A stretch of 64,000 nt of DNA from Nitrospira sp. (GCA_035455145.1 DATIFR010000134.1:16845-80844); one strand, 5' to 3'. Counted from the stretch's first letter, positions 35,770 to 58,110 are shown. Numbers and translations are program-made. Notes: generated by a model from the sequence alone, not told the origin.

Positions 35770-35948
35770 GGTGAGACAGGTGCTCCCTGTGCTCGCGGAA
35801 CGCGACACGCGGGAACAATCGGATGCTTAAATCATGGGCGGTGTTCGTTCGACGCGCGCACGATGGGAGCAACCTGTCTCACCCTACAAGAAGAGCAGCT
35901 CCATTGGCCTAGGAGGAAAAGGAAAGCGAGCAAGCTTGGAAGGAGTGT
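35770..35948 (+). repeat. Structured repeat module X plus conserved 23-nt tail
   Basis: Outer stem GGTGAGACAGGT-GCTCCC / GGGAGC-A-ACCTGTCTCACC; core shared with 43084, 55183 and 57747; tail at 35926-35948. Confidence 0.85.
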
Positions 35949-36015
35949 TTGTGGGCGGAGCCGATTGAGGAGCCAAAAGAATAGGAAGTGGGTCCTGTCG
36001 CTGACCTCACAGGAA

Positions 36016-36199
36016 GCCTTCGGGTTCGGCTCACGTACCTCCCGGAGCGATCCTTTCGGGCTTCGTAGGGTGGAAGCCTTCTGGAATTCCCTCAGCCACG
36101 GTCTTCCGACCGTGGTGCTTTGGTCAGTTCCAGCTTTCCATCCCGCCTTAGCCTCGGTGGATACCTCGCTCCTCCGGTAAAGTTCGCGAGCCCGAAGGC
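36016..36199. repeat. Structured repeat family W, copy 1
   Basis: Closed by a 13-bp stem GCCTTCGGGTTCG / CGAGCCCGAAGGC; its core is homologous to 52600-52730. Confidence 0.75.
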
Positions 36200-36224
36200 G
36201 TTCCGTGAGATGAAAAGGAGTGGG

Positions 36225-36311
36225 TGGAGCGCAGGTCAGCGCCACCCGCGCTGGTGAACTCTCAATCGGCCGAAGGGGAGAAAGAAATACGAGCGAGCGT
36301 GGAGGGAGCAT
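36225..36311 (+). repeat. 3' fragment of module Z plus 23-nt tail
   Basis: GGTCAGCGCCACCCGC as in 40486-40500; tail ACGAGCGAGCGTGGAGGGAGCAT at 36289-36311. Confidence 0.75.
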
Positions 36312-36364
36312 TCAGAAGGGACAGCGGGCAGGAGTCGGTCTTTAGTCATCGAGGAAGATGATTG

Positions 36365-37828
36365 ATGCGGGAACAGCCGGTTGAGCCACATGTGTTTGTC
36401 ATTGTCGGTGGGACAGGCGATCTGACGCACAGGAAACTCTTGCCCGCTCTCTACCATCTGCGCGGTCAGGGTGTGCTGGAAAAACAGAACACGCTGATCG
36501 TCGGAGCGGCGTTGCCAGAGATGAGCGAAGAGGGGTATCGCCTCTGGGCCTACGAAGGTCTGCAGAAGTCTGGCGTGCGCCATGACAAGGAACTCAGGGC
36601 CTGGTGCGAAGCCTGTATCCATTATCAGTCCGTTCACGAGGGGAAGCCCAAGGATTTCGAAGCCTTGGCCGCCTTCATCCGGCGGTTGGAACGGTCGCGC
36701 AGCATGCCGGAAAACCGCATCTTCTACCTGGCCTTGCCGCCAGAAGTAGTCCCGAGCACCATGGAGCGGTTGGATCATACGGGACTTCTGAAGAGCCACG
36801 GCTGGGTCCGCGTCGTATTTGAAAAACCGTTTGGACACGACTTTCATTCGGCGCGGGCATTGAACACCACACTGCACCGCTACCTGGACGAATCCCAGAT
36901 CTATCGCATTGACCATTACCTGGGCAAAGAGACGGTACAGAATCTGTTGGCGTTTCGTTTTGCCAACCCGATTTTCGAGTCGCTCTGGAAGCGTGATGCC
37001 ATTGAGAGCATCGAAATCACCGTCGCGGAAGATCTCGGTGTCGAGCATCGCGGCGCCTATTACCAGCAGGCCGGTGCCCTGCGTGATATGGTGCAGAACC
37101 ATCTCACCCAGCTGATGACGGTTGTGGCCATGGAAGTACCGGTGTCGTTCGATGCGGTGGCCATCCGGAGTGAAAAACTGAAGGTCCTGCATTCTATTGC
37201 GCCGATCAACCCGCACGATGTCGTCTTCGGCCAATACACGGCCTGGAGATCCGGCAGCGTGAATATTCCTGGTTATCTCGAAGAGAAAGGCATTCCGAAG
37301 GATTCGACCACGGAGACGTTTGTGGCCTTGAAGGCGGAAATCCACAATTGGCGATGGAAGGGCGTGATGTTCTATCTGAGGACCGGCAAGCGGCTTCCGC
37401 GCAAGCTGACCCAGATTGCGGTGACGTTTCACGAAGCGCCTACGCAGGTGTTCCGTTCGCTCGATCCCGGGAGCATTCCACCCAACAAGTTGCTGGTCAC
37501 GCTGCAGCCGAGCGAAGGATTCGCGCTCTGTTTCTCCGTGAAGACGCCGGGACGCCCGTTCCGATTTACCGACCACGCACTGCAATTTAGTTATGAGGAG
37601 GCGTTTGGCGAACTGCCGGAAGCCTACGAGACGCTGCTACGCGACGTGATGATCGGTGATCAGACGCTCTTCGTCAGTGCCGAGTTTACTGAAACTGCCT
37701 GGCGTCTCTATGATCCGGTCATTGTTGGTGAACATACGGTGCACAACTATACCGCTGCGACGTGGGGGCCACGCGAAGCGGACATGCTGCTGGAACGGAA
37801 CGGACATCGGTGGCAGCTGGGATGGTAA
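36365..37828 (+). CDS. zwf: Glucose-6-phosphate 1-dehydrogenase
   Basis: GGTGDLTHRKL, EKPFG, YRIDHYLGKE, LRDMVQNH, ETFVA, RTGKRL. Confidence 0.96.
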   Translation: MREQPVEPHVFVIVGGTGDLTHRKLLPALYHLRGQGVLEKQNTLIVGAALPEMSEEGYRLWAYEGLQKSGVRHDKELRAWCEACIHYQSVHEGKPKDFEALAAFIRRLERSRSMPENRIFYLALPPEVVPSTMERLDHTGLLKSHGWVRVVFEKPFGHDFHSARALNTTLHRYLDESQIYRIDHYLGKETVQNLLAFRFANPIFESLWKRDAIESIEITVAEDLGVEHRGAYYQQAGALRDMVQNHLTQLMTVVAMEVPVSFDAVAIRSEKLKVLHSIAPINPHDVVFGQYTAWRSGSVNIPGYLEEKGIPKDSTTETFVALKAEIHNWRWKGVMFYLRTGKRLPRKLTQIAVTFHEAPTQVFRSLDPGSIPPNKLLVTLQPSEGFALCFSVKTPGRPFRFTDHALQFSYEEAFGELPEAYETLLRDVMIGDQTLFVSAEFTETAWRLYDPVIVGEHTVHNYTAATWGPREADMLLERNGHRWQLGW

Positions 37829-37877
37829 GCGTGCGATGTGCAGGGGGTAGGAGTGAAGTCATCAAGAGGAGGTTTGA

Positions 37878-38564
37878 TTGATGGGGCGTTCGATGGGCGA
37901 TCCGATACAGCGATTGATGGGTTTGATGTTCAAAGCGCATCCTTGGCACGGGGTCTCGATTGGAGACAAGGCGCCGGAGGTGGTCACGGCCTATATCGAG
38001 ATCGTGCCGACCGACACGGTAAAGTATGAGGTCGATAAGGACAGCGGCTTCCTTAAGGTCGATCGCCCGCAGCGGTTCTCAAATTTCTGTCCCGTGTATT
38101 ATGGGCTGGTGCCTCAGACCTACTGCGGCGAGAAAGTGGCAGGGCTCTTCTCCAAGCGGGCGAAGCGGAAGGGCATGGTCGGCGACCGCGATCCGCTCGA
38201 TATCTGCGTACTGACAGAAAAGACCATCCCCCACAGCGACATTCTGCTTACGGCGATTCCGATCGGCGGATTCAGCCTGGCCGACGGCGGTGAGGCGGAC
38301 GACAAGATCATTGCCGTGATGAAAGAAGATGCGGCATACGGGGACTTCACCGACATCGGAGACTGTCCGATCACGTTGATCGATCGCCTCCAGCATTATT
38401 TCCTCACCTATAAGCAAGCGCCAGGAGCGGTGCAACACAAAGTAGAAATTACCAGCGTGTACGGCCGCGACGAAGCGTTGAAGGTTATCCGTGCCAGCCA
38501 CGCCGACTATCGAGAGAAGTTCCCTGAGCTGGAATCCCTCTGGCCGAAGCAGATGGCCACCTAA
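37878..38564 (+). CDS. ppa: Family I soluble inorganic pyrophosphatase
   Basis: KAHPWHG, VKYEVDK, YGLVPQT, DRDPLDI, DDKIIAV. Confidence 0.93.
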   Translation: MMGRSMGDPIQRLMGLMFKAHPWHGVSIGDKAPEVVTAYIEIVPTDTVKYEVDKDSGFLKVDRPQRFSNFCPVYYGLVPQTYCGEKVAGLFSKRAKRKGMVGDRDPLDICVLTEKTIPHSDILLTAIPIGGFSLADGGEADDKIIAVMKEDAAYGDFTDIGDCPITLIDRLQHYFLTYKQAPGAVQHKVEITSVYGRDEALKVIRASHADYREKFPELESLWPKQMAT

Positions 38565-38591
38565 TCACAGAAAGGTCACAAATACATCCCG

Positions 38592-40340
38592 ATGAAGCAC
38601 GATCAAAACCATCCGCCCGCTGCAACCGCAATCCATGGATTCTCGCCCGGCTTCGCCGCATTGGGACTCGAAGCGTCGTTACTCACCACGCTCGAAACGC
38701 TTGGATATGAAGAGCCGACACCCATCCAGCGCGAAGCGATCCCGCCGCTTCTGGCCGGGAAGGACCTGCTCGGTCAGGCGGCAACGGGAACCGGAAAGAC
38801 CGCTGCCTTCACGCTGCCGCTCCTTCAACGGATCGCGCACGGGGCCAAGGCCAAACCGGCGGCGCTCATTCTCGTGCCGACCCGCGAGCTCGCCATTCAA
38901 GTCAGTGAGGCCGTCCAACGCTACAGTAAAGAACTGCGTACCAGCGTGTTGGCCATCTATGGCGGCCAAGCCATCGGCCCTCAGTTCCATGCATTGAAAC
39001 GGGGGGTGGATGTCGTAGTGGCGACGCCGGGGCGTGCGCTCGATCACATCAGGCGCCAAACCTTGAAGCTGATTCACGTGCAGATCGTTGTGCTCGACGA
39101 AGCGGACGAGATGCTCGACATGGGGTTCGCCGAAGATCTCGACGCCATTCTGGAGCAGACTCCCGCGACGAAGCAGACCGCCCTGTTTTCCGCAACCATG
39201 CCGACGCGCATCAAATCCATCGCGCACCGGCACCTTAAGCAGGCAGTCGAGATCACTATCGCCAAGGAACCGGTAAAAGCCGGCGCTGCGCCGCGCGTCC
39301 AGCAGACAGCCTATGTGGTCACGAGACAACATCGTGGCGCCGCACTCGTGCGCATTTTAGATATGGCGGGGCCCAAGTCTGCCCTGGTGTTTTGCCGCAC
39401 GCGCGTCGAAGTGGACGATGTCACGGCCATGCTCAATAGCCGCGGGCATCGAGCCGAAGCCATTCACGGCGGCATGAGCCAGCCCCAGCGCGATCGCGTA
39501 ATGAGCGCGTTTCGAAGCGGACAAACGGAACTCCTCGTGGCCACCGACGTGGCCGCGCGCGGTCTCGATATTCCCAGTGTCTCGCACGTCATTAATTACG
39601 ATTTGCCGTCGTCTGCCGAAGTATATGTGCACCGCATCGGGCGGACCGGCCGTGCCGGCCGCGAGGGTGCCGCCATCACGATCCTGGATCCTCGGGAGCA
39701 ACGGCTTCTCCGCAGCATCGAGCAGCACACGAAAGCCAGAGTGACGGTGGCGCCGGTCCCGTCGGTCGCAGACCTCCTCGCGAAACGACTCGAACGAACC
39801 AGGGCACTGGTCCAGGAGGCAATGCAAGCAGACGATCTTGACGGATTTAAGGGCGTCGTGAAAGCGATGGCCGCATCGGGCGATCCCATTACTGTGGCCG
39901 CCGCGGCGATGAAGCTGATCTTTCAAGAGCAGGGTGGAGAGCGGGTCGAACAGGAGATTCCTGCCATGCCGATCCCCCAGCCGGAACCCTATAGGCCGAT
40001 GCAGCGACTAACCGGCCGTCCCGATGACCGGTATCGTGGCGCACAGGCCAGATCCGGCGGGCCTCAGCCGATGGCCAGGCCTGGTCGGGGCGGACGGGAA
40101 CCAGGGATGGCGCGGGTCTATGTTGGTGCGGGACGGGAAGCCGGCATCAGGCCAGGCGATCTGGTCGGCGCCATTGCCAACGAAGCCAAAGTGAATTCGA
40201 GCATGATCGGCGCAATCCAGATCGAAGATCGCTTTTCCGTTGTGGATGTGCCGGAGGCGATGGCGCAACGAATTGTTGAAGTGCTGGGGAGGGCGAGAAT
40301 TAAGGGGCGGAAGGCGGCGGTGCGGTTGTTTAGAGAATAA
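38592..40340 (+). CDS. deaD: DEAD-box RNA helicase with a DbpA-type C-terminal RNA-binding domain (DeaD/CsdA-like)
   Basis: PTPIQ, ATGTGKT, PTRELA, TPGR, DEADEM, SAT, TDVAARGLD, HRIGRTGR; GIRPGDLVGAIANE. Confidence 0.9.
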   Translation: MKHDQNHPPAATAIHGFSPGFAALGLEASLLTTLETLGYEEPTPIQREAIPPLLAGKDLLGQAATGTGKTAAFTLPLLQRIAHGAKAKPAALILVPTRELAIQVSEAVQRYSKELRTSVLAIYGGQAIGPQFHALKRGVDVVVATPGRALDHIRRQTLKLIHVQIVVLDEADEMLDMGFAEDLDAILEQTPATKQTALFSATMPTRIKSIAHRHLKQAVEITIAKEPVKAGAAPRVQQTAYVVTRQHRGAALVRILDMAGPKSALVFCRTRVEVDDVTAMLNSRGHRAEAIHGGMSQPQRDRVMSAFRSGQTELLVATDVAARGLDIPSVSHVINYDLPSSAEVYVHRIGRTGRAGREGAAITILDPREQRLLRSIEQHTKARVTVAPVPSVADLLAKRLERTRALVQEAMQADDLDGFKGVVKAMAASGDPITVAAAAMKLIFQEQGGERVEQEIPAMPIPQPEPYRPMQRLTGRPDDRYRGAQARSGGPQPMARPGRGGREPGMARVYVGAGREAGIRPGDLVGAIANEAKVNSSMIGAIQIEDRFSVVDVPEAMAQRIVEVLGRARIKGRKAAVRLFRE

Positions 40341-40415
40341 GGAAGTGTTGTGGCGGGTCCTGTCGGTGATTGAACCCATTCGTCCTCGCTCCACCCATCC
40401 CCCAGTGGGTCCCTT

Positions 40416-40561
40416 CCGCTGCGGGCACTTGGTGAAAGCCGCGTCTCGGCGCGGCAGGGGTCGGGCGGGTGAGAAAGTTGCCCGGGTCAGCGCCACCCGC
40501 CTGTAGAGGTCGCATTTGCCGCATGAGGAAGAGGACAAACGAGCGAGCTTGGAAGGAGCAT
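40416..40561 (+). repeat. Structured repeat module Z plus 23-nt tail
   Basis: CCGCTGCGGG..CCGCGTCTCGGCGC..GGGCGGGTGAGAAAG..GCGCCACCCG shared with 55461 and 57933; tail at 40539-40561. Confidence 0.85.
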
Positions 40562-40638
40562 GTGTACCGTCAGACACGCGTATGCGAAAGTAGACCCAGC
40601 CGGTTTTGAGAACGTAGAATGTCGCGATACTGTTTCCC

Positions 40639-41373
40639 ATGCCGATCCAAACCTTTACTGCACAAGTCGACGCGATCAAAGATCTCACGCATGACGTGCG
40701 CCAGCTCGACCTGCGCCTGATTGAGCCGAACACCATCAGTTTCAAGCCGGGCCAGTTCGTCTCGTTCGAGATCCCGCAAGCCACGCCAGGCCGCTCGGTG
40801 ACGCGACCCTACTCCATTGTCTCGCAACCCAGCCGATCGGGCGGCATCACGCTGTTATTCAATCTGGTGCCAGGAGGACCTGGTTCCACCTATCTGTTCA
40901 GCCTCAAGGCAGGGGACAGGACACAGTTCAAAGGACCGGCGGGCAACTTTTATCTGCGGGAGGATCCGGGGCGCGAGCTGTTGTTCGTTGCTACCGGTAC
41001 CGGGATCGCGCCCCTCTGGTCCATGCTGCTCGCCAATGCGGAGCGCGCCGACCCAAGACCGGCGACGTTACTCTGGGGACTGCGCAGCCAGCGGGATCTG
41101 TACTACCAGAAGGAACTCGCTGGACTCGTTCGAACGAACAAGACACTGAACGCGATTACGACGCTGTCCCGACCGGAGCCTGGCTGGTCAGGCGAATCAG
41201 GCCGTGTTCTGCGGTTGATCGAATGGCAGGTCTCTTCGGTGAAGAATCTTGCCGTTTACCTCTGCGGGAACAGCGCCATGATCGTCGATGCCACGGCCCT
41301 CCTGCAGAAGAAAGGGCTCTGCCCGATCTATCGTGAGAAGTACTATGATGACAGTGGATCGCCGGAAGATTGA
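40639..41373 (+). CDS. FNR-family FAD/NAD(P)H oxidoreductase without a 2Fe-2S domain
   Basis: FKPGQFV, RPYSI, GGPGS, ATGTGIAP, YLCG. Confidence 0.9.
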   Translation: MPIQTFTAQVDAIKDLTHDVRQLDLRLIEPNTISFKPGQFVSFEIPQATPGRSVTRPYSIVSQPSRSGGITLLFNLVPGGPGSTYLFSLKAGDRTQFKGPAGNFYLREDPGRELLFVATGTGIAPLWSMLLANAERADPRPATLLWGLRSQRDLYYQKELAGLVRTNKTLNAITTLSRPEPGWSGESGRVLRLIEWQVSSVKNLAVYLCGNSAMIVDATALLQKKGLCPIYREKYYDDSGSPED

Positions 41374-41495
41374 GGGAGCCCCCCTAATTCTCCCGTGCCG
41401 CACCTGCGTCGCTATCTCAGTGGAGAGGGGAGCAGCAAGCTCGAAAGTCCACCTGTGTTGTGATGTCGCAGGACAGTCACGCGAGTGAGGTGAAG

Positions 41496-41927
41496 ATGAA
41501 AAAGCAAGCGCGCAAATCGGTCATGGTCGTCACCGGCTCCACGGCAGCCGGCTGGAGAAGGGCGGCCGAGGCGATGGCCGCGGCCTTCGACTGTGAGCTG
41601 CACCGGGTCAATCTGTCCGGGGTCGTGAGTCAGTATGTCGGTGAAACGGAAAAGCAGCTCAACCGCATCTTTGAAAAGGCCGAAGAAAGCGGGGCGATTC
41701 TGCTTTTTGAGGAAGCGGATGCGCTGTTCTGCAGGCGCAGTAAAGTCAAGGATGCGCACGACCGCTATGCGAACGTCGAAACCGCCGCGCTGTTACAGCG
41801 GATAGAAGCCTATGACGGCCTCGCCATCCTCGCGACCAACCGGAGCGCGAAGATCGATCCCGCGTGGCTCCGTCGGGCGAAGGTTGCGAAGCCGAAAGTA
41901 TCAAAGAAGAAGGCTACGGGGAGATGA
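41496..41927 (+). CDS. Isolated, degenerate AAA+ ATPase domain
   Basis: SQYVGETEKQL, FEEADALF, DAHDRYAN, ILATN; Walker A region reads GSTAAGWR, with no GKT. Confidence 0.7.
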   Translation: MKKQARKSVMVVTGSTAAGWRRAAEAMAAAFDCELHRVNLSGVVSQYVGETEKQLNRIFEKAEESGAILLFEEADALFCRRSKVKDAHDRYANVETAALLQRIEAYDGLAILATNRSAKIDPAWLRRAKVAKPKVSKKKATGR

Positions 41928-42002
41928 CGGCGGAAGCGCCTGGCTGGACCACCCCACAAAATTTATCCTGGACGCAGCGTCTCCGATGAAAGGACGAAGA
42001 CT

Positions 42003-43016
42003 ATGGCGACAAGGCAATTGACTCCGGCCGGCATCATGCGACTCGGCCTCGGCTTCTGGGGGTCGAAGACCCTGCTCAGTGCCATCGAGCTCGGTCTGTT
42101 TACGGAGTTGGCGAAGGGTCCGCTCACGCTGCAGGCGCTGACCACCAGGCTGAACCTTCATCCCCGCAGCGCGCAGGACTTCTTCGACGCCCTCGTGGCG
42201 CTCGGCATGCTGAAGCGCACCGGTACCCGCTACGCCAATACGTCGGAGACGGCGCAGTTCCTCGACCGGAATAAACCTTCCTACGTCGGTGGGATGCTGG
42301 AGATGTCCAATGCGCGGCTCTACCGCTTCTGGGGCTCGCTCACCGAAGGGCTCCGCACCGGGAAGCCGCAAAACGAAGCCAAGACGGGTGAAGATTTCTT
42401 CGGCGCGCTCTATGCCGATCCGCAGCAGTTGGAGGGGTTCCTGAAGGCCATGACTGGCCTCAGCATCGGCGCTGGCCGCGCGATTGCGAAGAAGTTTCCC
42501 TGGAAGAAGTACCGCACCTTCGCCGATGTCGGCTGTGCGCAAGGCGGCGTTGCCGTCGAAGTGGCCTTGGCGCACAAGCACCTCACCGGCTTCGGGATGG
42601 ATCTGCCCGTGGTACAGCCGGTGTTCGAAGCTTATACGCAGGACAAGGGAGTGGCGTCACGGGTGAAATTTCATCATGGCGATTTCTTCAAGGACTTGCT
42701 GCCGAAAGTCGATGTCATCATCATGGGCCATATCCTCCACGACTGGAACCTCGACGAAAAGATGATGCTCCTGCGCAAGGCCTACGATGCGCTACCACCC
42801 CACGGAGCGTTGATCGTCCACGAAGCCCTCATCGACGATGCCCGCAAGCAGAATGCGTTCGGCCTGCTTATGAGCCTCAACATGCTGATCGAAACGCATG
42901 GCGGCTTCGACTTCACCGGCGCGGATTGCCGTAAGTGGATGAAGGAAGTGGGGTTCAGGCGGACGCAGGTGGAACGGTTGGTGGGGCCGGATGGGATGGT
43001 CGTGGGCTATAAGTGA
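42003..43016 (+). CDS. SAM-dependent O-methyltransferase family 2 with a dimerisation domain
   Basis: [34 protein letters not shown]. Confidence 0.9.
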
Positions 43017-43083
43017 TGGATATGTGATGTGGTCTGGTCTGGTGAGTCCCTGTGCTTGCGGAGCATCGACAATAGAATGTGAG

Positions 43084-43403
43084 AACAGCGTCCGCATGGT
43101 CCTGTGCTCCCGGAGTGCGCACGCGGGACTCATCGTATTCTCAGATTAGGGGCGGTGCTCCCTCCACGGGCGCAATTGGACCATTGCGGACGCTGTTTTC
43201 CGAGATTAAACCAGACAAGTTCGGTGGGACCATTGATATGGTGGTTGCGCGCGAAACCTTCCATCCGCACCCCTTGAACAGGAGGAGAAACGAGCGAGCT
43301 TGGAAGGAACATTATAAGGGCTCGATCCTTCATGCAAGCCGCTGAGAAAGCCTCCTCCCCCTCACTTGATGGGATAAGGGAAGAGCGAACTTGGAAGGAT
43401 CAT
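43084..43403 (+). repeat. Stacked repeat cluster: module X, then two 3' fragments of module Y, each with a tail
   Basis: X outer stem AACAGCGTCCGCA-TGGTCC / GGACCA-T-TGCGGACGCTGTT; tails at 43211 (degenerate), 43290 and 43381. Confidence 0.8.
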
Positions 43404-43520
43404 TGAGTTCGTGGATGCAATCCAGCCCGCGTGCCACGAGACAATCTTGACATCAACGCTCGGCTCCCAGTACAAAATCATGCTTTGTCTATATGGGAAT
43501 TATTCATAAAGGAATCATTC

Positions 43521-44897: not shown

Positions 44898-45148
44898 GAC
44901 ACACGTGAGTCACAGCAAGGCCCGCAGGATGAGTATCCTGCGGGCCTTGTGCTATCTGGCATCGACAACTTCAGAGACAGTTATGCCGGACAGCGGCTTC
45001 GGCATCCAATTCTGTGAGCTGCCGGATCGGGTCGCACTACCAAGCATAGGAGGGGTGTCGGGCCGATTCCGATCGTCCACACGTTGACAGCTCTGCCAGG
45101 GGATCGTAGCCTAGATTCCTCCAATCCAGTAAAACGGGAGGAACTTCC

Positions 45149-47235: not shown

Positions 47236-47286
47236 GGGACGGGAGAGTATCAGAGAGAGGGGGGAGGCGGCCAGGAGAGCAGGAAG

Positions 47287-47684: not shown

Positions 47685-47924
47685 TCAGGGTCGGACCTGG
47701 AAGGTCTTTGGCCCCTTTTTGTGGTCCGACAGGTAAATCATGTAGCGACCTCCGGTGCCGCATGTCACCATGATTTCTCCACGCCGGCTCAAGCGATCGA
47801 TTTCGAGAAACACCTGATTCCAGGTGAACTCGGGTAGACGTTCGGCCAATGTATCCAGGTCACAACCATGCGTACGCTTGATCGTTCCGAGGATGCGATC
47901 GGTGACCGGTGTTTGTGGATCCAT
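47685..47924 (-). CDS. Small hypothetical protein, winged-helix-like
   Basis: LDTLAERLPEFTWNQVFLEIDRLSRRGEI; paralogue at 60085-60369. Confidence 0.7.
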   Translation of the reverse strand: MDPQTPVTDRILGTIKRTHGCDLDTLAERLPEFTWNQVFLEIDRLSRRGEIMVTCGTGGRYMIYLSDHKKGPKTFQVRP

Positions 47925-47983
47925 GATATGACCCTCCTGTGATGTTCGAACGCTCACTGCAATCTTCCTCACGCCCCTTCCGG

Positions 47984-48430
47984 TTACGGATCGCTTCCCG
48001 ATCGTGGGTAGACGATGCCGAACTGCTCATCCGGCATGAGCCGTTGAGACAGATCGGCCAGCTCCTCGGCTGCGTCGTCGCCCAACCCGTAGGCGCGACT
48101 AGTCAGCATGCTGAGAAACCGGCCCATTTCCCGTCTGGCCCGCCATCGATCCCCGAGAGTGACCGCGCCGCGGATGCGATCGAGTTCATCGGCATAGGGG
48201 GCGAAATCGTACGTCGGATATTTCTTCGTGAAGTACGTCATGAGCCGGTGCTCGAGGTCATCCACCCACTCGACCGGCGGAGCGAGACGGTCAGTCGGTG
48301 TAGCGACAACGAGCAGAACGGAAGGAGTCACCGTGCCGTGAATGTGCGCAGGTATGAGAAGGAAGAAGACAGCTGACAGGAGAATCAGCGCCAAGAGGGG
48401 AATGACCGTGCGGCGGCTGAAAACTTCCAT
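47984..48430 (-). CDS. Hypothetical membrane-anchored or exported protein
   Basis: N-terminal hydrophobic segment, helical C-terminus, GAGG RBS. Confidence 0.6.
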   Translation of the reverse strand: MEVFSRRTVIPLLALILLSAVFFLLIPAHIHGTVTPSVLLVVATPTDRLAPPVEWVDDLEHRLMTYFTKKYPTYDFAPYADELDRIRGAVTLGDRWRARREMGRFLSMLTSRAYGLGDDAAEELADLSQRLMPDEQFGIVYPRSGSDP

Positions 48431-48679
48431 GAGGACCCTCGTTCCAAAGGATCCGCATCCAAATGGTGATGCCTGACGTTAGTGTGTCCGGTGTGGGAGT
48501 GAAGGGGGCTGCAGCGAAGTCCGTCATGCAGGATGACAGAACGTAGCATGCAGAAGAGGCGGCAGCCACCGCCACTGGAACGTCAGACCAGCATGTTACG
48601 CCGGTGGAGATTCTTGGTCAACCGTCTCTCGATGAGCCAAGGGAGCCAGTTTCCAGGGATTGCTCGGCGCCATGGAGCA

Positions 48680-48702: not shown

Positions 48703-48786
48703 CCGATGCACGCGCCGCACGCAACTCCCTCATGATGTACTCATCGGAGCATATCGTGCTTGAGTCAGCTTCAAGTCGTCTTCATA

Positions 48787-49761: not shown

Positions 49762-49769
49762 GACGGTTC

Positions 49770-50738: not shown

Positions 50739-50751
50739 CGAGAGGAGAGCC

Positions 50752-51954
50752 ATGGCGAGTCGCGTTGTGATGCCCAAGCTGACGGACACGATGGAAGAGG
50801 GTGTGCTCGTTGCGTGGAAGAAACGCGAGGGGGATCACGTGCAGTCCGGGGAGGCCCTCGCTGAAATTGAAACTGACAAGGCGATCATGGATCTGGAGGC
50901 CTTTGCCTCAGGCATTCTGCGCAAGATTCTCGTGAATGATGGAGAAACGGTCCAGTCCGGAACGTTGCTGGGCGTGATCGCCGAGGCCGATGAAGATATC
51001 ACCTCGGCCTTGACCGACACAGTCACGGCCGCCCCGTCGACCGGCGGGGGAGGCAAGCCCACCGCCCCAGCACCTGCCGTCACTCCACCCACGTCGCCCA
51101 CGCGCACAGAGGGAGCCCGCCCCATCGCGTCCCCTCGCGCGAAAGCTCTAGCCGCCGAACGAGGGATCGATCTCTCCACCATTACCGGCAGTGGTCCTGG
51201 CGGGCGAATCGTCGAAGAAGACTTGCCGAAGATACCGGCACCCGTGACGGCGGCCCTGCCCGCCGGAACCGATCAGCCCCTGACCCAAATGCGGAAGGCC
51301 ATTGCTCGGGCCACGACCCAGAGCAAAGCACCGGTACCGCACTTCTATCTGACGAGGGAGATCGATATGGAGGCGGCGGAGCAGTTCCGCGAGCAATTCA
51401 AGCAACGCCGTCAGCCCCATCCCTCAATCACCGATCTGCTGATCAAAGCGGCGGCCATAGCGCTGACGAGGCATCCCGCGATCAACGTGTCGTATGTCGG
51501 CGAGGCGATCAGACACTATGCGCATATCGATATCGGTGTGGCGGTCGGCATGGACGACGGGCTGATCACGCCCGTCATTCGCGATTGTGGCGCAAAGACG
51601 CTGGAAGCCATCTCAACGGAATCACGTGCGCTCATCGAACGGGCCAAACAGAAGCGGTTGCAACCGCCTGAATATACGGGTGCCACGTTCTCCGTTTCCA
51701 ACCTCGGCATGTACGGGGTCGACAACTTCATTGCTGTGCTCATCCCGCCACAGGCCGCTTCGCTGGCCGTTGGCGCCATTCGGGAGGTGCCCGTTGTTGC
51801 AGCGGGTAGTGTGAAGATTGGCCGACGAATGCAGGTTACGTTATCCTGCGATCACCGGGCCATCGATGGCGTGATGGGCGCGGAGTTTCTGAAAGAGTTG
51901 ACGCGCATCCTTGAGCACCCGCAAGAACTGGTCATCCCAGTGAGGACATCCTAA
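50752..51954 (+). CDS. pdhC: Dihydrolipoamide acetyltransferase E2
   Basis: Lipoyl domain ETDKA, E3-binding SPRAK..GSGPGGRI, catalytic DHRAIDG. Confidence 0.92.
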   Translation: MASRVVMPKLTDTMEEGVLVAWKKREGDHVQSGEALAEIETDKAIMDLEAFASGILRKILVNDGETVQSGTLLGVIAEADEDITSALTDTVTAAPSTGGGGKPTAPAPAVTPPTSPTRTEGARPIASPRAKALAAERGIDLSTITGSGPGGRIVEEDLPKIPAPVTAALPAGTDQPLTQMRKAIARATTQSKAPVPHFYLTREIDMEAAEQFREQFKQRRQPHPSITDLLIKAAAIALTRHPAINVSYVGEAIRHYAHIDIGVAVGMDDGLITPVIRDCGAKTLEAISTESRALIERAKQKRLQPPEYTGATFSVSNLGMYGVDNFIAVLIPPQAASLAVGAIREVPVVAAGSVKIGRRMQVTLSCDHRAIDGVMGAEFLKELTRILEHPQELVIPVRTS

Positions 51955-51968
51955 GATCCAGGTAGAAA

Positions 51969-52216
51969 GGGCGTGGATGAAACGCCTGCACGCTCCGATG
52001 CCTCAGATCGACCGCACTAAGCTTCGCACCTGCTCGGCTGCGGAACTTGTTCCATCCTTTGCGATGCGGGATGGAACGTCGAACAGTCCTCGCCGTCGCG
52101 GAACGCGACCGCCGCTGCCCGGCAAGTGCGGAGTCCCGAGCTTCGGTACAAGTCGCGCGCAGGACTTTCCATCCCCGCCACTTGGGGAGAAAAACGAGCG
52201 AGCTCTGAGGGATCAT
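51969..52216 (+). repeat. Structured repeat module Y plus 23-nt tail
   Basis: Aligns with 47287-47534 (TCGACCGCACTAAGCTT, CTGCTCGGCTGCGGAACTTGTTCCATCC, GAACAGTCCTCGCCGTCGCG); tail at 52194-52216. Confidence 0.88.
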
Positions 52217-52277
52217 TCTAGTTGGATGAGGTGTGCGGTAAAGATGGTGATCATCAGATGAGAAAGGAGGGCAGGCC

Positions 52278-52592
52278 ATGGCGTGGGGACCTGATGCGAA
52301 TACAGAAGATGAACTGGAAAAGCTGGCAGCTGTGCGTGCGTATCTTCACGAACAGTTCCCGGGTGCCTCGATTCGTGATTCGTACGATGCCGGCAGGATA
52401 GCGGAGGTGTTTCGGATCGAAACCGACGGCGTCGAGGGGCTGCGCGATGCGGTCGTCTCGACCGAATTTCTCGACGAGTATCCGCCTGAAAAAATGGGAA
52501 AGGCGTTGACCGGCTTGCGGGTTGCGGAACACCTCCGCTCAGCGAAGGGCAAGGAGGTGCTGGTCACAAGTTGGGGTGTAGAAGAAAAGTAG
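52278..52592 (+). CDS. Hypothetical protein
   Basis: Strong RBS (AAGGAGG), 104-aa acidic globular ORF. Confidence 0.65.
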   Translation: MAWGPDANTEDELEKLAAVRAYLHEQFPGASIRDSYDAGRIAEVFRIETDGVEGLRDAVVSTEFLDEYPPEKMGKALTGLRVAEHLRSAKGKEVLVTSWGVEEK

Positions 52593-52599
52593 GGTTGAA

Positions 52600-52730
52600 T
52601 CCGTTCGGCCTTCGCTTATCGACCTCTGGGCGCGATCCTTCCGGATGCGACCGGGCGGAAGTCCTTCTGGAATTCCCGCAGCCACGGTTGTGCCAACCGT
52701 GGCTGCGTCTGTCAGTTCCACCTTTCCTTC
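52600..52730. repeat. Structured repeat family W, copy 2
   Basis: GCGATCCTT..CCTTCTGGAATTCCC.CAGCCACGGT..ACCGTGG..GTCAGTTCCA.CTTTCC shared with 36050-36150. Confidence 0.75.
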
Positions 52731-52910
52731 CCGTTCACACCCCGCTTCTTGTTCAGGTCCATGAGCGCATAACTTTTGTGCCGGCCCCCGAGCAGCAAGT
52801 CAACGTGCACATTCACCTCATCGTCGTCTCTCCCATCTTTTCCTGTGCGCAGGCGAGCCGGCCTGTTAGGATGCGCTCGCGCGGGTGAATCGTCGAGCCC
52901 GCATGATCGC

Positions 52911-54152
52911 ATGACACTCTCACAGCCATCAGCCAGACCGCGACAAGCCGCGGTCCTCTTCATTCTCATCACGGTCATGCTCGACGTCCTGTCGTTCGGA
53001 ATCATTATTCCCGTCCTCCCGAAGCTCGTCGAAAACTTCATGTCCGGCGACACGGCGCAGGCGGCGGCGATCTATGGCTTCATGGGCATGGCCTGGGCGT
53101 TGATGCAGCTGCTCTGCTCGCCGATCCAGGGTGCACTCTCCGACCGGTTCGGGCGAAGACCGGTCGTGCTGCTCTCCAACTTCGGCCTCGGCCTCGATTA
53201 CATCCTCATGGCGCTCGCGCCGGACATCACCTGGCTCTTTGCGGGCCGGGTCATTTCGGGTATCGCCTCGTCGAGCTTCAGCACTGCTGGCGCCTATATC
53301 GCCGACGTCACCCCGCCGGAGGAACGGGCCGCCGGTTTCGGCATGATCGGCGCAGCGTTCGGCTTAGGGTTTGTGCTCGGTCCGGCGGTAGGCGGACTGT
53401 TAGGGGCGAGCGATCCGCACCTGCCGTTCTGGGGCGCAGCCGCGACGAGTCTCGTGAACGCCTGTTACGGTTACTTTGTCCTGCCGGAATCGCTTCCGCG
53501 CGAGAAACGGATGAACTTTTCCTGGAAGCGCGCGAACGCGGTCGGTTCGCTCGTGCTGCTGCGCTCGCATCATGAACTGTTCGGCCTCTCTGCCGTGGCG
53601 TTTCTCAACTATCTCGCCCATGCGGTGTTACCCAGCACCGCGGTGCTCTATGTCGGCTATCGCTACGGATGGGGATCGACGGCCGTCGGCTTCATGCTCG
53701 CCGCTGCCGGCATCAACGCCATGATCGTGCAGGGACTGTTGATGAAACCGCTCACCGCGCGGTTCGGGGAACGAAAGACCTTGCTCGCGGGCTTGTGCTG
53801 CGGGGCGATCGGGTTTTGCGTCTACGGCGTCGCCACCGACGGATGGATCTATTGCGCCGGCATTCCCATCATGGCCTTCTGGGGGCTCGCCGGTCCGTCG
53901 GCGCAGGGGCTCATGACCAACCGCGTGAGTGCCTCTGAACAAGGGCAACTCCAAGGAGCCATCGCGGGGTTGTCCGGCATCGCCGGTCTGATCGGGCCCG
54001 GTCTCTTCACGCAAACATTTGCGCTGTTCATCGGGCCCCGCGCCGGTTGGCATCTCCCGGGCGCGCCGTTTCTCCTTGCGTCATTCTTATTACTGCTGGG
54101 AATGGCGTTAGCCTGGCGGGCGACGAGGGGAGGGCATGAGAAGACGGGATGA
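52911..54152 (+). CDS. TCR/Tet-family MFS efflux transporter
   Basis: LDVLSFGIIIPVLP, GALSDRFGRRPV (motif A), GFVLGPAVGG, QGQLQG. Confidence 0.9.
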   Translation: MTLSQPSARPRQAAVLFILITVMLDVLSFGIIIPVLPKLVENFMSGDTAQAAAIYGFMGMAWALMQLLCSPIQGALSDRFGRRPVVLLSNFGLGLDYILMALAPDITWLFAGRVISGIASSSFSTAGAYIADVTPPEERAAGFGMIGAAFGLGFVLGPAVGGLLGASDPHLPFWGAAATSLVNACYGYFVLPESLPREKRMNFSWKRANAVGSLVLLRSHHELFGLSAVAFLNYLAHAVLPSTAVLYVGYRYGWGSTAVGFMLAAAGINAMIVQGLLMKPLTARFGERKTLLAGLCCGAIGFCVYGVATDGWIYCAGIPIMAFWGLAGPSAQGLMTNRVSASEQGQLQGAIAGLSGIAGLIGPGLFTQTFALFIGPRAGWHLPGAPFLLASFLLLLGMALAWRATRGGHEKTG

Positions 54153-54215
54153 ATTGCTCCGCGGGCTTCCGCAAGGATATTGAGCCTGCACGCAAGGCGT
54201 GATCGCTGATCGTGG

Positions 54216-55106
54216 TCAGCGTGGACTGACGAGCCTGGGCTGTTTGCCGCCTGATGCCAGTTGGGCGAACTGCTGCTTCATCGCATTGACCCGGATTAGA
54301 TAGGCGCGCACGTCGTGGTCGCCGCACCGCTGGTGGGGGCTCAGCCTGAAGCGGCGCGCGGCATAGGCCTGGCCGGCCCCGGCACCGCAAAGGTGAATGA
54401 CCGCGGCCAGATCCTGTTTGTTCCGGAGCGTGACAGTGCCGCTCCGTCTCTGTCCGACCGCACTCACAACTTGGCGATCGAGCAGTGCCGAAGTCAATTC
54501 GATGGCATGGCTCGGGAGGACGCGCTGGTAGAGGTTGTTGAACCAGCAGGATTGCATGTCGTGCCATGGGCCGTCCTCGACCACGACATGGTCGTGGATG
54601 CAGTAGCGTTTGGCTTCCTGAAAGGTACCATCGGTAATCTGGTACATGCCGACCGCACTCGACGCCGGTCGGTACCACTCCAAAGGATTCCACGACGGCT
54701 GCCATCTCCAGTAAGTTCGCGCCACCGGGTTTCCCGCGCCCTCGACCTGCGCCAGCGCCGCCAATAACTCAGGCGTGATGACCGCTGTCGCATGTTCGCG
54801 GAAGAGCAATCCATATTCTTTCCACGTTTCGGCCGGGCTCTTGTTCAGTGTACGGTCCAAGGGAAAGAGGATTTCGCTCGGCTTGTAGTACGCGTGATAG
54901 GTCCAGTTGACGCCGAGCCAGAACAGGAGGATCGCCGATAAAATCACGACGGCACGCACCGACGGCGGCGAGGCCAGCACGGCCTTCAGAATTCTACGGG
55001 ATGTTTTCCAGCGGGCGCGCAGGTAACGCCAGAAGGTTTTGAGGGTGCGGCGACGGCGGCGGGAGGGACGGCGACGGGAGGAGCGGAGGTTAGGGCGAGA
55101 GGACAT
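54216..55106 (-). CDS. Membrane-anchored lytic transglycosylase-like (SLT/lysozyme-fold) protein
   Basis: Arg-rich N-terminus plus TM; ALAQVEG (catalytic Glu) and SSAVGMYQI motifs. Confidence 0.75.
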   Translation of the reverse strand: MSSRPNLRSSRRRPSRRRRRTLKTFWRYLRARWKTSRRILKAVLASPPSVRAVVILSAILLFWLGVNWTYHAYYKPSEILFPLDRTLNKSPAETWKEYGLLFREHATAVITPELLAALAQVEGAGNPVARTYWRWQPSWNPLEWYRPASSAVGMYQITDGTFQEAKRYCIHDHVVVEDGPWHDMQSCWFNNLYQRVLPSHAIELTSALLDRQVVSAVGQRRSGTVTLRNKQDLAAVIHLCGAGAGQAYAARRFRLSPHQRCGDHDVRAYLIRVNAMKQQFAQLASGGKQPRLVSPR

Positions 55107-55130
55107 GGGGACAATATATATGAAAATGGT

Positions 55131-55850
55131 GGGAGGGTGGCCTGATCGGTCCCTGTGCTCGCCGAACGCGACACATTGAGAAGGAAGGAGGTCCGTTGGT
55201 CGCCTGTGCTCGCGCAACGCGGCACGCGGGATCTATCGAATTATCACGTAAAGGGCGGTGCTCGTTGGACGCGCGCACTGGGAGACCAATCGGCCCACCT
55301 TCCGAGAAGAGAGGGCAAGCGAGCTTGGAAGGACCATTGTATATTTCACGCGCGCACAATGGAACCGATTCAGGCCACCTCGAAGCCCGAGTCCCCATGA
55401 GGGTGAAAGAGGGAAACGAGCAAGCTTGGGGGGACCATTTTATTTAATAGTGGGGCCCTCCCGCTGCGGGCGCTTGGGAAAGACCGCGTCTCGGCGCAGT
55501 AGGGATTGGGCGGGTGAGAAAGTCGCTCGGGTCGGCGCCACCCGTGAGAATGAGGATTCGCAACTCAGGGGGTGGGGGAGGAACGACGAGCGAGCTTGGG
55601 AGGAACACGAGGATGGTGAGCCTGCTCGCTCCGGCGAGTGGTTAAGCCGCATGGCCCTATCGCTGCTTGGCTGCGCAACTTGTTCCGTCCTGGACTTCGT
55701 TCGAACGGAACTTCGGACAATGCTCGCCATCGCTTTCAGCGACCGCATCGACTCGACCATGCAACCCCTCGCAAGTCGCAGCCAGCCCCACCATCCTCAG
55801 TAGGCGAATAGGGAATGTCACGCGCACAATGGGACCGATTCAAATCTCAA
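55131..55850 (+). repeat. Largest stacked/nested repeat cluster (X split around X, then Z, Y and an X fragment)
   Basis: Tails at 55315, 55416 and 55586; modules identified by alignment to the other copies. Confidence 0.85.
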
Positions 55851-55953
55851 CCTTGAGAGGAGAAGAAAGAATCCGCCGGTGGAAGCTCTGCCGGCTACCA
55901 TCTGCAGTGGAAGAAGCCGGCGCGACTGCCGAATGGATGATCCTATGGTCGTC

Positions 55954-56100
55954 TTAGCGGAAAGATTTGCGTCGGCTCACCTGGCGACGCGCATCTCGGT
56001 TTACGGCTTTGTCTCGAATAAATGCACCGATGAGCAGGGCGGGGATTGAAAGAAGCCAGAGATACCATGGGGCCCACAATGTCGCGTCGTGCATGATCAT
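55954..56100 (-). CDS. Small membrane peptide
   Basis: AAAGGAG RBS; single TM followed by a basic tail. Confidence 0.45.
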   Translation of the reverse strand: MIMHDATLWAPWYLWLLSIPALLIGAFIRDKAVNRDARRQVSRRKSFR

Positions 56101-56426
56101 TCTCCTTTCGTGATACCAGTCGACTACGCAATCACCGTACCAACGTGAGAACACGCCCCATTCCCCGTTTATTCACCTTGATATGCGATTAGGACAACGA
56201 TCCGGAGCCCGGATCTTGTGGTGGGCGATGAGGCACACAACGCACAACGGCGTTGCACAAACAACACGGATCATGACGATCCACCACACTGCCTCCACTG
56301 CGGTGCATTTTTCTGCAGTGCATTCGTTCACAGGCTTCAACCGGACCGGTTGACTCCATGGGGGAAAGCTGAGTAGCGTGGCATTGCCTACAGGGGACTC
56401 GTCCCATCCAACGACTAGAGTTTCCC

Positions 56427-57110
56427 ATGCCACAGAATCGCTGCGCCATGATCGTCGTGGTCGGATTGCTTGTACTCACCGCCTCCTGGTCGGCCGCGCA
56501 GCAGCCTGCCTCACAAGCAGAATCGAGTCTCGAACCGGAGTTCCGGCAACTGCGTTCGAAACTCAGCGCCATGCCGGAATTCAGCGGGACCGATGCCGAA
56601 TCAAAGTTTCGTCTGGCTGAAGAACTCGCCCATCGCGGAGACGTGCAGGGTGCCGTGGAAACCTATCGCGCCGCGATTCATCTCAAACCCGACTGGCCGG
56701 ATCCCTACCGGGGACTCGGTCAGGTGCTACTCGACCATCACGACTATGCCGAGGCGATCCAGGCGTTGCAGACCAGCATTCGCTTAGGTCGCGACGATCA
56801 TCACGCTTTCTATTGGCTGGGACGCGCCTATATGGGGAAGCACGATCTGGCTGCGGCGGCAGTCGCCCTCGAGCGCGCGACGGAACTCAAGCCCGACGAT
56901 GCCGAAACTTTTGCGGACCTCGGCCTTGTTCGAATGACGCAGGGCGATGATGTCGCCGCGGAACAGGCGCTCAAGCGGTCCATTCAGTTGAAGCCGGATT
57001 ACGCCGAGGCCCACCAGCTGCGCGAACAACTGGCCAAGGCCAAAGGCAACAGGGAGACAGTCAAAGAAGCGGGCATGGCGCGACTCAGGAGTGTATTTGA
57101 TCGGGAATAA
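56427..57110 (+). CDS. Exported TPR protein
   Basis: Signal peptide and four TPR-like repeats (AIHLKPDWPDPYRGLG, ATELKPDDAETFADLG). Confidence 0.85.
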   Translation: MPQNRCAMIVVVGLLVLTASWSAAQQPASQAESSLEPEFRQLRSKLSAMPEFSGTDAESKFRLAEELAHRGDVQGAVETYRAAIHLKPDWPDPYRGLGQVLLDHHDYAEAIQALQTSIRLGRDDHHAFYWLGRAYMGKHDLAAAAVALERATELKPDDAETFADLGLVRMTQGDDVAAEQALKRSIQLKPDYAEAHQLREQLAKAKGNRETVKEAGMARLRSVFDRE

Positions 57111-57111
57111 A

Positions 57112-57681
57112 TTAGGGACGCCAGTCCGGCTGGGCATTGGAGGTCGATAATACGATCGCATGTATGGCCAACTGATGGCCGTCCGGCTGTTCCCAGGTCT
57201 TGAGCAGGAGTTGATGCATCTCCCGCACCTCGATGGCGCCGAGCGAGACCCAACCGGGTGTGGACGGCAGTTCCCCCTTCACACAAGTCTTCGCGCAGAG
57301 ATTGATCCAGGGATGGCCGGGATCTCCGCTGCCATAGGCCCATGCCGCATAGGCTCCCGCAGGCAACTGTGAGGTCGTCCGAATCGGCGAGACGCCCGGA
57401 AGAGGCTGGCGAAACATCACCACACGATCCGCGTTCTCGCGCGGCACACCGCAACGGTCCCCCTTCGCATAGACCCACAACGTGTATTCGCCGGAATTGG
57501 CCTTGCAGCCTTCGAAGGCTACGTCCGTTCCACCCTTCCAATCGGAAGCGCGAAAGATTTGCGTGGAGGGAGGTGCTGGCACATCAGCGGCGAGAAGTGG
57601 TGAGGGCCAGAATGAAAGCACAAGGGCGAGGTATGTCGTGACAAGAGTCAGAGTGGCGGTGCGGAAGTGAAAGGAAGGCAT
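57112..57681 (-). CDS. Hypothetical exported protein with paired cysteines
   Basis: Signal peptide (MPSFHFRTATLTLVTTYLALVLSFWPSPLLA), beta-rich composition. Confidence 0.6.
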   Translation of the reverse strand: MPSFHFRTATLTLVTTYLALVLSFWPSPLLAADVPAPPSTQIFRASDWKGGTDVAFEGCKANSGEYTLWVYAKGDRCGVPRENADRVVMFRQPLPGVSPIRTTSQLPAGAYAAWAYGSGDPGHPWINLCAKTCVKGELPSTPGWVSLGAIEVREMHQLLLKTWEQPDGHQLAIHAIVLSTSNAQPDWRP

Positions 57682-57740
57682 GAAGAGTTGTAGCGAAGTA
57701 GAGAAGAAAAGGTCAATGCGGGGAGTGTGGCGAGTGAGGT

Positions 57741-58110
57741 GGGAGGGTGGCCTGATCGGTCCCTGTGCTCGCGGAACGCGACACACGGGAACAAACAGAT
57801 TGATAAATTATTGGCGGTGTTCGTTCGACGCGCGCACGATGGGACCGATTCAGGCCACTTTGAAGCCCGTCTCCGCATGAGGGGGAGAGATAACGAGCAA
57901 GCTTGGAAGGACCATTTTATAGTGGATCAATTCCGCTGCGGGTGCTTGGTGAAAACCGCGTCCCGGCGCGGGTGGGCTGGGTGGGTGAGAAAGCCGCCCG
58001 AGTCGGCGCCACCCGCTAAGAGAGAGTCAACCCTTGCCCAGGGGGAGGAGCGGAACGAGCAAGCTTGGAGGGATCATCAAAAGTTCGACGCGCGCACGTT
58101 TGAGGCCAAT
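57741..58110 (+). repeat. Stacked repeat cluster: X plus tail, Z plus tail, X 3' fragment
   Basis: X stem GTGGCCTGA-TCGGTCCC / GGGACCGA-T-TCAGGCCAC; tails at 57893 and 58055. Confidence 0.88.

Follow-up and report, generated by a model that had tools for sequence, protein, structure and literature searches.

We analyzed a 64,000-nt stretch of Nitrospira sp. DNA (GCA_035455145.1, DATIFR010000134.1:16845-80844; hereafter the window, i.e., the whole stretch, with positions counted from its first letter) that carries repeated long hairpins, here called Module X. Nitrospira are the main nitrite oxidizers and complete ammonia oxidizers in soils, waters, and treatment plants, and to our knowledge almost nothing is known of their non-coding RNA and repeat content. 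The window belongs to an uncultured soil Nitrospira: its DNA was detected in soil metagenomes, and its glucose-6-phosphate dehydrogenase is 75–95% identical to Nitrospira-named proteins. Apart from the repeats, the window encodes ordinary housekeeping genes. An earlier note made from the sequence alone (the original prediction) had described four Module X copies with differing closing stems. All four are present on the + strand, at 35770–35883 (copy 1), 43084–43197 (copy 2), ~55183–55303 (copy 3), and 57747–57858 (copy 4). On re-reading, every closing stem pairs and leaves a single unpaired base on its 3′ arm (A, T, T, and T in copies 1–4), copy 3 has an imperfect outer stem, and copy 2 has the most divergent core, all as originally described.

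A covariance model (R1) applied to the whole window with no filters recovered exactly these four full copies at 104–117 bits, vs. only 7–12 bits for their reverse complements, which makes Module X a directional sequence family and more than a palindrome. Scans with the core patterns, allowing ≤3 mismatches, returned four matches to the 5′ core (three full copies and one half copy; chance expectation 0.01) and three matches to the 3′ core (chance expectation 0.00), again all on the + strand. Comparison of the window with itself further revealed half copies, which the original prediction had not listed.

Copies 1 and 4 are free-standing full hairpins, the former starting 3 nt past the stop of a 65-amino-acid (aa) open reading frame (ORF) and lying upstream of zwf. 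Copy 2 has a core of the “Xm” type, is identical in sequence in the Logan contigs L001–L006, and lies 3′ of a degenerate 5′ half copy (43030–43075, +) for which the window holds no complementary 3′ host arm; the window also contains a weak 3′ half copy (43245–43272). Copy 3 lies nested within the apical region of a split host, the arms of which match the copy 4 arms: the 5′ half of this host (55128–55176, +) is 98% identical to 57738–57785, and its arm pairs with the 3′ half (TCACGCGCGCACAATGGAACCGATTCAGGCCACC; 55346–55379, +), likewise identified by self-comparison. Two isolated 3′ half copies complete the set, a degenerate one at 55818–55852 (+) and one with a copy-3-like arm at 58084–58119 (+), immediately 3′ of a Y box.

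This Y box (GAGCRAGCTTGGARGGANCATT(TTATAG)) is a short conserved motif that, with a purine-rich linker, usually occupies the 3′ side of the hairpin. The window holds 13 sites, all on the + strand and all between 35928 and 58077. Copy 1 is followed, after its purine-rich linker, by the Y box GAGCRAGCTTGGARGGANCAT (35928–35948, +), copy 3 by one that lies within the split host (55317–55337, +), copy 4 by one at 57895–57915 (+), and copy 2 by a degenerate Y-like box read directly from the sequence (CCAGACAAGTTCGGTGGGACCATTGATAT; 43212–43240, +). Further + strand sites are found, e.g., at 36291, 40541, 43292, 43383, 47514, 48682, 52196, 55418, 55588, and 58057. Overall, the four full copies, five to six half copies, and 13 Y boxes lie inside 22 kb of the window, while the other 42 kb contain none.

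Fold and covariation of the hairpin

Each window copy is predicted to fold into one long imperfect hairpin (−54.9 to −63.0 kcal/mol), with z-scores of −7.1, −6.4, and −6.8, and of −3.2 for the copy at 55183, which was folded as a 131-nt stretch. Relatives from other loci all share the fold (−46 to −85 kcal/mol), and the unit is the whole hairpin of ~112–130 nt. From the outside inwards, a variable outer stem (P1; 9–20 bp or more) is often followed by the one-base bulge on the 3′ arm, which is common in relatives but not universal (~11 of 21 copies). Inside the bulge follow a semi-conserved helix of 6–8 bp (P2), P3 (UGUGC paired with GCRCR), an invariant U·C mismatch, P4 (CGCG paired with CGCG/U), and a 2-nt 3′ bulge ending in a conserved A that is invariant in the 21-copy alignment. 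P5, a one-base 5′ bulge, P6, and P7 then lead to an A/T-rich apical loop of 25–30 nt with conserved positions (GGGA-yn-rATCrnAT...ATYAA-GGGCGGTG). We also observed a short variant in which P6–P7 and the loop are swapped for a mini-hairpin (GCGCCC-TMAGAA-GGGCC), at loci L010 (6392–6497), L066 (11054–11159), and L042 (3130–3233), and also in L060 and L078. Since this variant retains the lower helices, the lower stem looks to be the indispensable part.

Covariation in a larger alignment, on which the original prediction had made its claim of selection on a single-stranded structure depend, was evaluated for 24 core pairs in 58 Nitrospira copies, against 500 shuffles and slid-register controls. 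In the core, 91.3% of cells were paired (78.9% in the shuffles), and changes on both sides affected 12 of the 24 pairs, amounting to 179 cells. The covariation score reached 0.315, compared to 0.113 after shuffling, and none of the 500 shuffles attained it; with the partner slid by 1–3 columns, scores were ≤0.081. The alignment was fitted to a covariance model, which favors the structure, but given the effect size and the slid-register controls this fitting is insufficient to explain the covariation.

Since the outer arms cannot be aligned by column, they were evaluated by duplex pairing instead, with each 5′ arm paired to its own 3′ arm and to the 3′ arm of every other copy. Own-arm duplexes averaged −39.0 kcal/mol vs. 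−21.6 kcal/mol for cross pairings, and where a 5′ arm paired best with another arm than its own, this arm mostly came from an orthologue or a member of the same subfamily. Seven true orthologues located next to a polyprenyl-synthase gene have arms of only 56–94% identity, yet a 20–25 bp outer stem is kept in each. That such divergent orthologous arms still keep their stem upholds the original claim of selection on a single-stranded structure, which is further supported by the covariation and the own-arm pairing: Module X is a directional hairpin kept by compensatory change. The stem differences among copies, from which that claim had been drawn, mostly represent diverged subfamilies of a whole-hairpin repeat, i.e., not four independently evolving sites.

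Quasi-palindromes are known to mutate by template switching, and Module X might in principle be a functionless quasi-palindrome whose complementarity is renewed by template switching or hairpin-directed repair in the absence of selection. The perfect outer stems of 23–27 bp found in some copies would fit this explanation, as would the clustering of rearrangements at the hairpin tip, the expected site of hairpin cleavage and repair. We nevertheless consider it improbable. Template switching would erase asymmetry, whereas the U·C mismatch, the A of the 3′ bulge, the single-base bulges, and a recurrent G·U at the base of P4 (30 of 58 copies) are kept across the 58 copies, which also argues against a simple homogenization of a DNA palindrome. 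In addition, core sequence and loop are conserved across species, and a split host copy at locus L079 (see below) decays in core and arms alike, which would be expected had selection acted on the intact hairpin.

The strand and nature of the folded molecule can be approached from the same features. The recurrent G·U and the U·C mismatch fit folding of the + strand, and the presence of the element in metatranscriptome contigs makes a single-stranded RNA form plausible. Hairpin stability is similar on both strands, and the G·U excess is modest (77 forward vs. 55 reverse), so that thermodynamics cannot separate RNA from single-stranded DNA.

A conserved core closed by a variable helix is also the layout of many ribozymes, and several copies stand in leaders of co-oriented genes, as a self-cleaving ribozyme or a riboswitch aptamer with a variable closing stem would. 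Such an identity appears very improbable, since the alignment offers very few conserved unpaired nucleotides from which to build a catalytic core or a ligand pocket, the apical domain can be exchanged for a mini-hairpin or a 170-nt insert, and the downstream genes are unrelated to each other. Rfam 15 gave no match at gathering score across the whole window, and relaxing the limit to E-value ≤10 brought no meaningful match in the surroundings of three of the four copies (35770, 55183, and 57747).

Spread, nesting, and persistence across Nitrospira

A search with a degenerate core pattern in one genome per prokaryotic species yielded ~20 loci, all from Nitrospira or Nitrospiraceae assemblies, and the remaining pattern matches fell by coincidence in coding sequences of Caulobacterales and Streptomyces. 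Thirty further loci came from a metagenome scan. Overall, the covariance model identified 58 copies at ≥60 bits in 42 genome and metagenome sources, often several per few kilobases, while the strict pattern occurs at 1–2 sites per reference genome. The family is thus found in Nitrospira only. Neither plasmids nor phages yielded a match to Module X, a tRNA/tmRNA scan gave no hit, and our literature search on Nitrospira repeats or structured RNA retrieved nothing specific; with no match in Rfam, plasmids, phages, or the literature, the family is previously undescribed.

Copies can be assigned to subfamilies by their arms. The Xm subfamily has its own conserved arms (GGAGGAACGACACCC..GTCGCTCC paired with GGAGCGACA..GGGTGCCATTCC) and occupies at least seven different contexts, and the arm type of copy 4 recurs beside an unrelated TPR gene at a non-orthologous site (L014). 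In DNA runs holding the window organism, arm k-mers were found at 5–8× single-copy depth, which indicates few copies per subfamily.

Copies are also nested: in at least six independent hosts (window 55128–55379; L042; L059; L072; L010/L078; L079), a full copy, linker and Y box included, stands in place of another copy's apical loop. Both halves of the host remain on either side, often still pairing with each other. A separate insert of ~100 nt (GGGGTnTTTATCCCGTCGC...GGCTCCGGGTCGAACRAGTTCTGTTTGG) was likewise observed in X apical loops, at L079 3150–3225, in L025 downstream of 4158, and in a DNA contig of run X3 that branches off after window position 55231. Copy 3 seems to contain this insert in one population variant. 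Whole hairpins have thus been duplicated or moved, and rearrangement is centered on the loop.

Comparison of related loci revealed filled, empty, and split states of the same site. In L079, where zwf is 87% identical and gene order is as in the window, the copy 1 orthologue is split by an Xm copy, itself carrying a further ~100-nt insert, and this split host is decaying. The same locus has an X block between ppa and a DEAD-box helicase gene, where the window has 27 nt only (38565–38591), and a further X block directly 3′ of the helicase, at a second site that is empty in the window. Intact copies are found in L066 and L060 where L010 and L078 hold a split copy. In L066, copies also form a tandem array, and a chimera is found whose two arms do not match. 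Persistence is evident from the orthologous series beside the polyprenyl-synthase gene and upstream of zwf, and a copy 1 orthologue occupies the same position in L044; copies have thus been retained at orthologous sites for long. More distant zwf loci (75–79% identity) are non-syntenic and contain no X copy, and hence cannot be used as empty sites. This natural series of compensatory changes together with filled, empty, and nested sites could be used to study how palindromic repeats arise, persist, and decay.

These properties bring Module X close to repetitive extragenic palindromes (REPs), the REP doublets that form hairpins (REPINs), and bacterial interspersed mosaic elements (BIMEs). Like these, it is extragenic and ~100 nt long, occurs as singlet halves and in tandem clusters, and forms mosaics with other short motifs, here the Y box and additional modules, as in BIMEs. 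As in REPINs, two inverted halves form the hairpin and leave singlet remnants, given the folds and the half copies in the window and at other loci. REPs and REPINs are inherited vertically over long times and keep their hairpin despite sequence variation (PMC3337134, PMC3116915), and Module X behaves alike. Its layout is however reversed: REPINs have conserved ends and a variable hairpin-forming spacer (PMC3337134), whereas in Module X the core and loop are conserved and the outer ends variable. Tandem Module X units are in direct orientation, whereas the palindromic units of BIMEs alternate. Module X also differs from REPs by its fixed 3′ Y tail, its seemingly low copy number, and a nesting that replaces the host loop. 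REPIN systems comprise tens to hundreds of copies per genome and a single-copy transposase gene that the repeats flank.

The comparison with miniature inverted-repeat transposable elements (MITEs) fails on other grounds. In MITEs, the terminal inverted repeats are conserved and the target site is duplicated, whereas the termini of Module X are variable and no target-site duplication was detected, including at the nested junctions. The sole duplication-like feature, a 24-nt direct repeat (GTGGGCGG(G/A)GCCGATTGAGGAGCC) at 35733–35756 and 35951–35974, on either side of copy 1 and its Y box, resembles a segmental duplication. Judging from L044, the second unit keeps the ancestral 3′ end of the 65-aa ORF, and a segmental duplication or insertion has hence remodeled the C-terminus of that ORF. 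Given the reversed layout, the direct tandems, and the lack of terminal repeats and target duplications, Module X is not filed here as a member of either REP/REPIN/BIME or MITE families.

An explanation entirely at the DNA level would cast Module X as a selfish or recombination element whose single-stranded DNA hairpin is the substrate of a REP-associated tyrosine transposase (RAYT)/HUH-type transposase or of a tyrosine recombinase, with pairing selected for propagation only and transcription being incidental. The hairpin folding equally well on both strands, half copies resembling REP singlets, apical-loop insertions in at least six independent hosts, and subfamilies retaining their own arms would all be accounted for, and REPINs have been reported as vertically inherited and long-lived while keeping a hairpin-forming spacer of variable sequence (PMC3337134). 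We still regard this as unlikely: the copy number is low, the geometry is opposite to that of REPINs, neither a target-site duplication nor defined termini were found, nesting replaces the host loop instead of producing a clean insertion, and a polarity towards stop codons and genes is not expected for purely selfish DNA. In addition, no HUH...Y (HUH/Y1) motif was found in the 338 ORFs adjoining copies, although this is weak evidence given that RAYTs are single-copy.

The position of the nested modules suggests another route of spread, in which the apical loop would be a docking site: a loop-targeting mechanism would install modules there and copy the hairpin to new sites. The modules observed in X loops, i.e., other X units with their Y tail and the separate ~100-nt insert, are those that such a mechanism would have handled, and it could consist of a structure-specific recombinase or nuclease, or of tip cleavage followed by templated repair. 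We consider this quite doubtful. If true, DNA mobility guided by structure would be of a new kind here, in a genus of biogeochemical importance, and may have been co-opted for transcript shaping. More generally, the reversed REPIN layout and the loop-directed nesting may point to an undescribed mechanism of recognition or propagation.

Integron attC sites raise a similar question, being imperfect palindromes that are read by structure. Module X is an imperfect inverted repeat of attC-like length, with paired geometry and extrahelical bases kept despite differing sequences; all window copies have a single orientation; and toxin–antitoxin genes adjoin some copies in other genomes, so that copies could be pictured as recombination sites bounding gene cassettes. 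This picture is hardly credible. In attC sites the outer R and L boxes are conserved and the center is variable, a site follows every cassette, and IntI is needed, none of which is true of Module X. The variable outer ends contain no R″/R′ core sites (RYYYAAC/GTTRRRY), spacings of 2.5–12 kb enclose housekeeping genes, and no integrase was found in the window or the loci.

Gene context, transcripts, and possible role

Next, we examined the position of Module X relative to genes, called here by a codon-usage score that replaced a greedy ORF calling found too noisy. Module X is typically placed at stop codons: of 11 copies with a co-oriented gene upstream, 8 start −16 to +7 nt from its stop codon, and for 18 of 23 copies the gene downstream has the same orientation as the element, both polarity counts being inflated by orthologues. 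Two L079 sites and the half copy at 43030 also fit this placement, and no convergent stop codon directly adjoins the 3′ side, where the linker and Y box are located. At the polyprenyl-synthase locus, Module X lies within a divergent intergenic region.

According to Pfam, the neighboring genes include those for Zwf, a TPR protein, CstA, polyprenyl synthase, a family-2 glycosyltransferase, a patatin-like lipase, and toxin–antitoxin proteins, and the protein clusters found near copies are simply syntenic neighbors. A riboswitch or other pathway-specific regulator would be associated with the genes of one pathway; these neighbors have no common function, which makes a pathway-specific riboswitch or leader unlikely. 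A coding function was also considered and rejected: the GTG in CCTGTGC opens short ORFs, but their frames differ between copies through a core indel, and substitutions follow an RNA/palindrome pattern, not a codon pattern.

Some X-bearing regions hold additional or unassigned sequence. In the window, ~640 nt between the TPR gene and copy 4 (57111–57746) contain no convincing gene, the sole candidate being a low-scoring minus-strand ORF (57112–57786). Elsewhere, accessory genes with their own promoters adjoin Module X, namely a MazE-type antitoxin gene (L014 1461–1670), a RelE/HigB-like toxin gene recognized by sequence reading only (L022/L023, downstream of X), and a gene for an ORF6N/Rha-like protein (L042 3420–3917). 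Since these genes vary, X-bearing intergenic regions may be insertion hot spots.

Transcript data were available mostly from related populations. For the window organism, RNA coverage amounts to one 151-nt metatranscriptome contig (57812–57962) and is otherwise sparse, while two sediment metatranscriptomes with related Nitrospira contain many contigs carrying X cores. Some of these contigs run from an X 3′ core through the arm and linker into a Y box, a junction that corresponds to the Y box at 57895–57915, and others start in a Y box and continue into the X 5′ core that follows. Metatranscriptome contigs may include DNA, and what they establish is the presence of the element in RNA preparations. 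In run X30, a 3′ core with its arm of the copy 3 type (55261–55296) reached a summed depth of ~8400 vs. ~180 for the 5′ core (55189–55224), against a ratio of ~6 to 1 in DNA runs; this excess could reflect more numerous 3′ half copies, a processed RNA fragment, or an assembly artefact or graph collapse. Two further depth signals were recorded. In L066, metatranscriptome depth rises to ~700 at 10396–10471, just downstream of the tandem X array; a strongly expressed gene may begin here, or the signal may come from a small RNA. In soil metatranscriptome run X25, contigs with 95–99% identity cover 47750–47947 and 48349–48543 of the window at a depth of ~10, with next to no coverage over the remainder of the 20 kb examined.

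Taken individually, several of these results would suit a dedicated, non-mobile cis-regulatory RNA or small-RNA gene, i.e., a hairpin in a leader, a 3′-untranslated region, or a transcript of its own that is bound by a specific RNA-binding protein, that controls particular genes, and whose duplicates are regulatory paralogues. Orthologous copies are retained with compensatory changes, the apical loop and internal irregularities are conserved, polarity relative to genes is constant, the element occurs in metatranscriptome contigs, and in the divergent polyprenyl-synthase intergenic region it would need its own promoter. Such a fixed RNA is unlikely in view of the functionally unrelated neighboring genes, the differing presence or absence at the same site between close relatives, the nested, tandem, half, and chimeric copies, the occurrence of one arm subfamily in unrelated contexts, and the lack of any conserved promoter or terminator framing the element.

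The explanation that we favor, with about even confidence, is that Module X is a Nitrospira-specific family of palindromic extragenic repeats, akin to REPs, REPINs, and BIMEs, that is probably transcribed into an RNA hairpin and spreads in a hairpin-dependent manner. The element would work as a single strand, most probably as a very stable RNA hairpin in a 3′-untranslated (3′-UTR), intercistronic, or leader position. There, it may be a barrier or a processing site, e.g., a block to 3′-exonucleases, an RNase III-type substrate, or a roadblock close to the stop codon, and would thereby delimit and tune neighboring transcripts. At the DNA level, spread would proceed through a hairpin-dependent process centered on the apical loop.

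Hairpin-forming MITEs active in transcripts offer a comparison: Neisseria Correia elements, ERIC/IRU, RUP, and BOX repeats are non-coding and 100–150 bp long, are co-transcribed with their neighbors, form long hairpins that can be processed or stabilize mRNA, and differ in presence or absence between strains. Liang, Rudd and Deutscher reportedly found in 2015 that E. coli REPs within ~15 nt of a stop codon stall ribosomes; several X copies begin within the same distance. As for RNase III stems, Module X offers a near-perfect duplex of at least 20 bp with conserved internal irregularities and tolerates large apical inserts, similar to rRNA processing stems, between which an entire rRNA is enclosed; RNase III does not require strong sequence conservation, whereas the Module X core has it. 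Classical intrinsic termination was considered for the same position: the 3′ flanks of copies 1–4 read CTACAAG, TTTTCCGAG, GAGAAGAG, and TTTGAAG, with a short T run after copy 2 only.

Several observations weigh against this explanation. With no U-tract after three of the four copies, the hairpin is not a classical terminator. The RNA evidence consists of unstranded contigs from other Nitrospira populations, at depths that cannot be normalized, and a single-stranded DNA or cruciform form is still compatible with a modest G·U excess and two equally stable strands. Copies per subfamily seem few (<10), unlike in typical REP families, and no transposase or recombinase was found among the 338 ORFs neighboring copies or in the window. 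Two copies in L042 are oriented against their called neighbors. Finally, strong sequence conservation in the helices and loop implies a specific partner protein, and the conservation of the helices thus points away from a generic barrier.

The favored explanation of a transcribed, spreading repeat would make Module X a candidate post-transcriptional element sited directly after stop codons. Irrespective of function, its covariance model can be used for annotating Nitrospira intergenic regions.

Y boxes and other small modules

The Y box loosely resembles the X 3′ arm (GCGCGCA..GGGAGAYCA) and hence may be a derived half copy. The last Y box ahead of a gene usually lies 32–150 nt upstream of the start codon. 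Neither a sigma-54 nor a sigma-70 promoter fits the motif on inspection, given its −12 GC and −35/−10 spacing, and a Shine-Dalgarno role was rejected as well, since real starts lie 32–150 nt downstream and no conserved short ORF follows.

Three other small modules accompany Module X and its Y boxes. A third structured module (“Z”; CCGCTGCGGG..CTTGG..GCCGCGTCYCGGCGCGG..GGGCGGGTGAGAAAG..GCGCCACCCGC), which has no Rfam match, occurs at 40414–40501, 55458–55545, and 57931–58016, and partially at 36220–36249, always between Y boxes or just 5′ of them. A fourth module with an internal hairpin (“W”; CCTTCTGGAATTCCCnCAGCCACGGT....ACCGTGG..GTCAGTTCCAnCTTTCC) is found at 36082–36157 and 52657–52733 in the window and also around 2700–2800 in L042. 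Last, a short module (“V”; GGAAGTG..GGGTCCTGTCGnTGA) stands immediately 3′ of stop codons, at 35984–36004, where the duplicated ORF end has its stop at 35984, and at 40341–40369, following the helicase stop at 40341.

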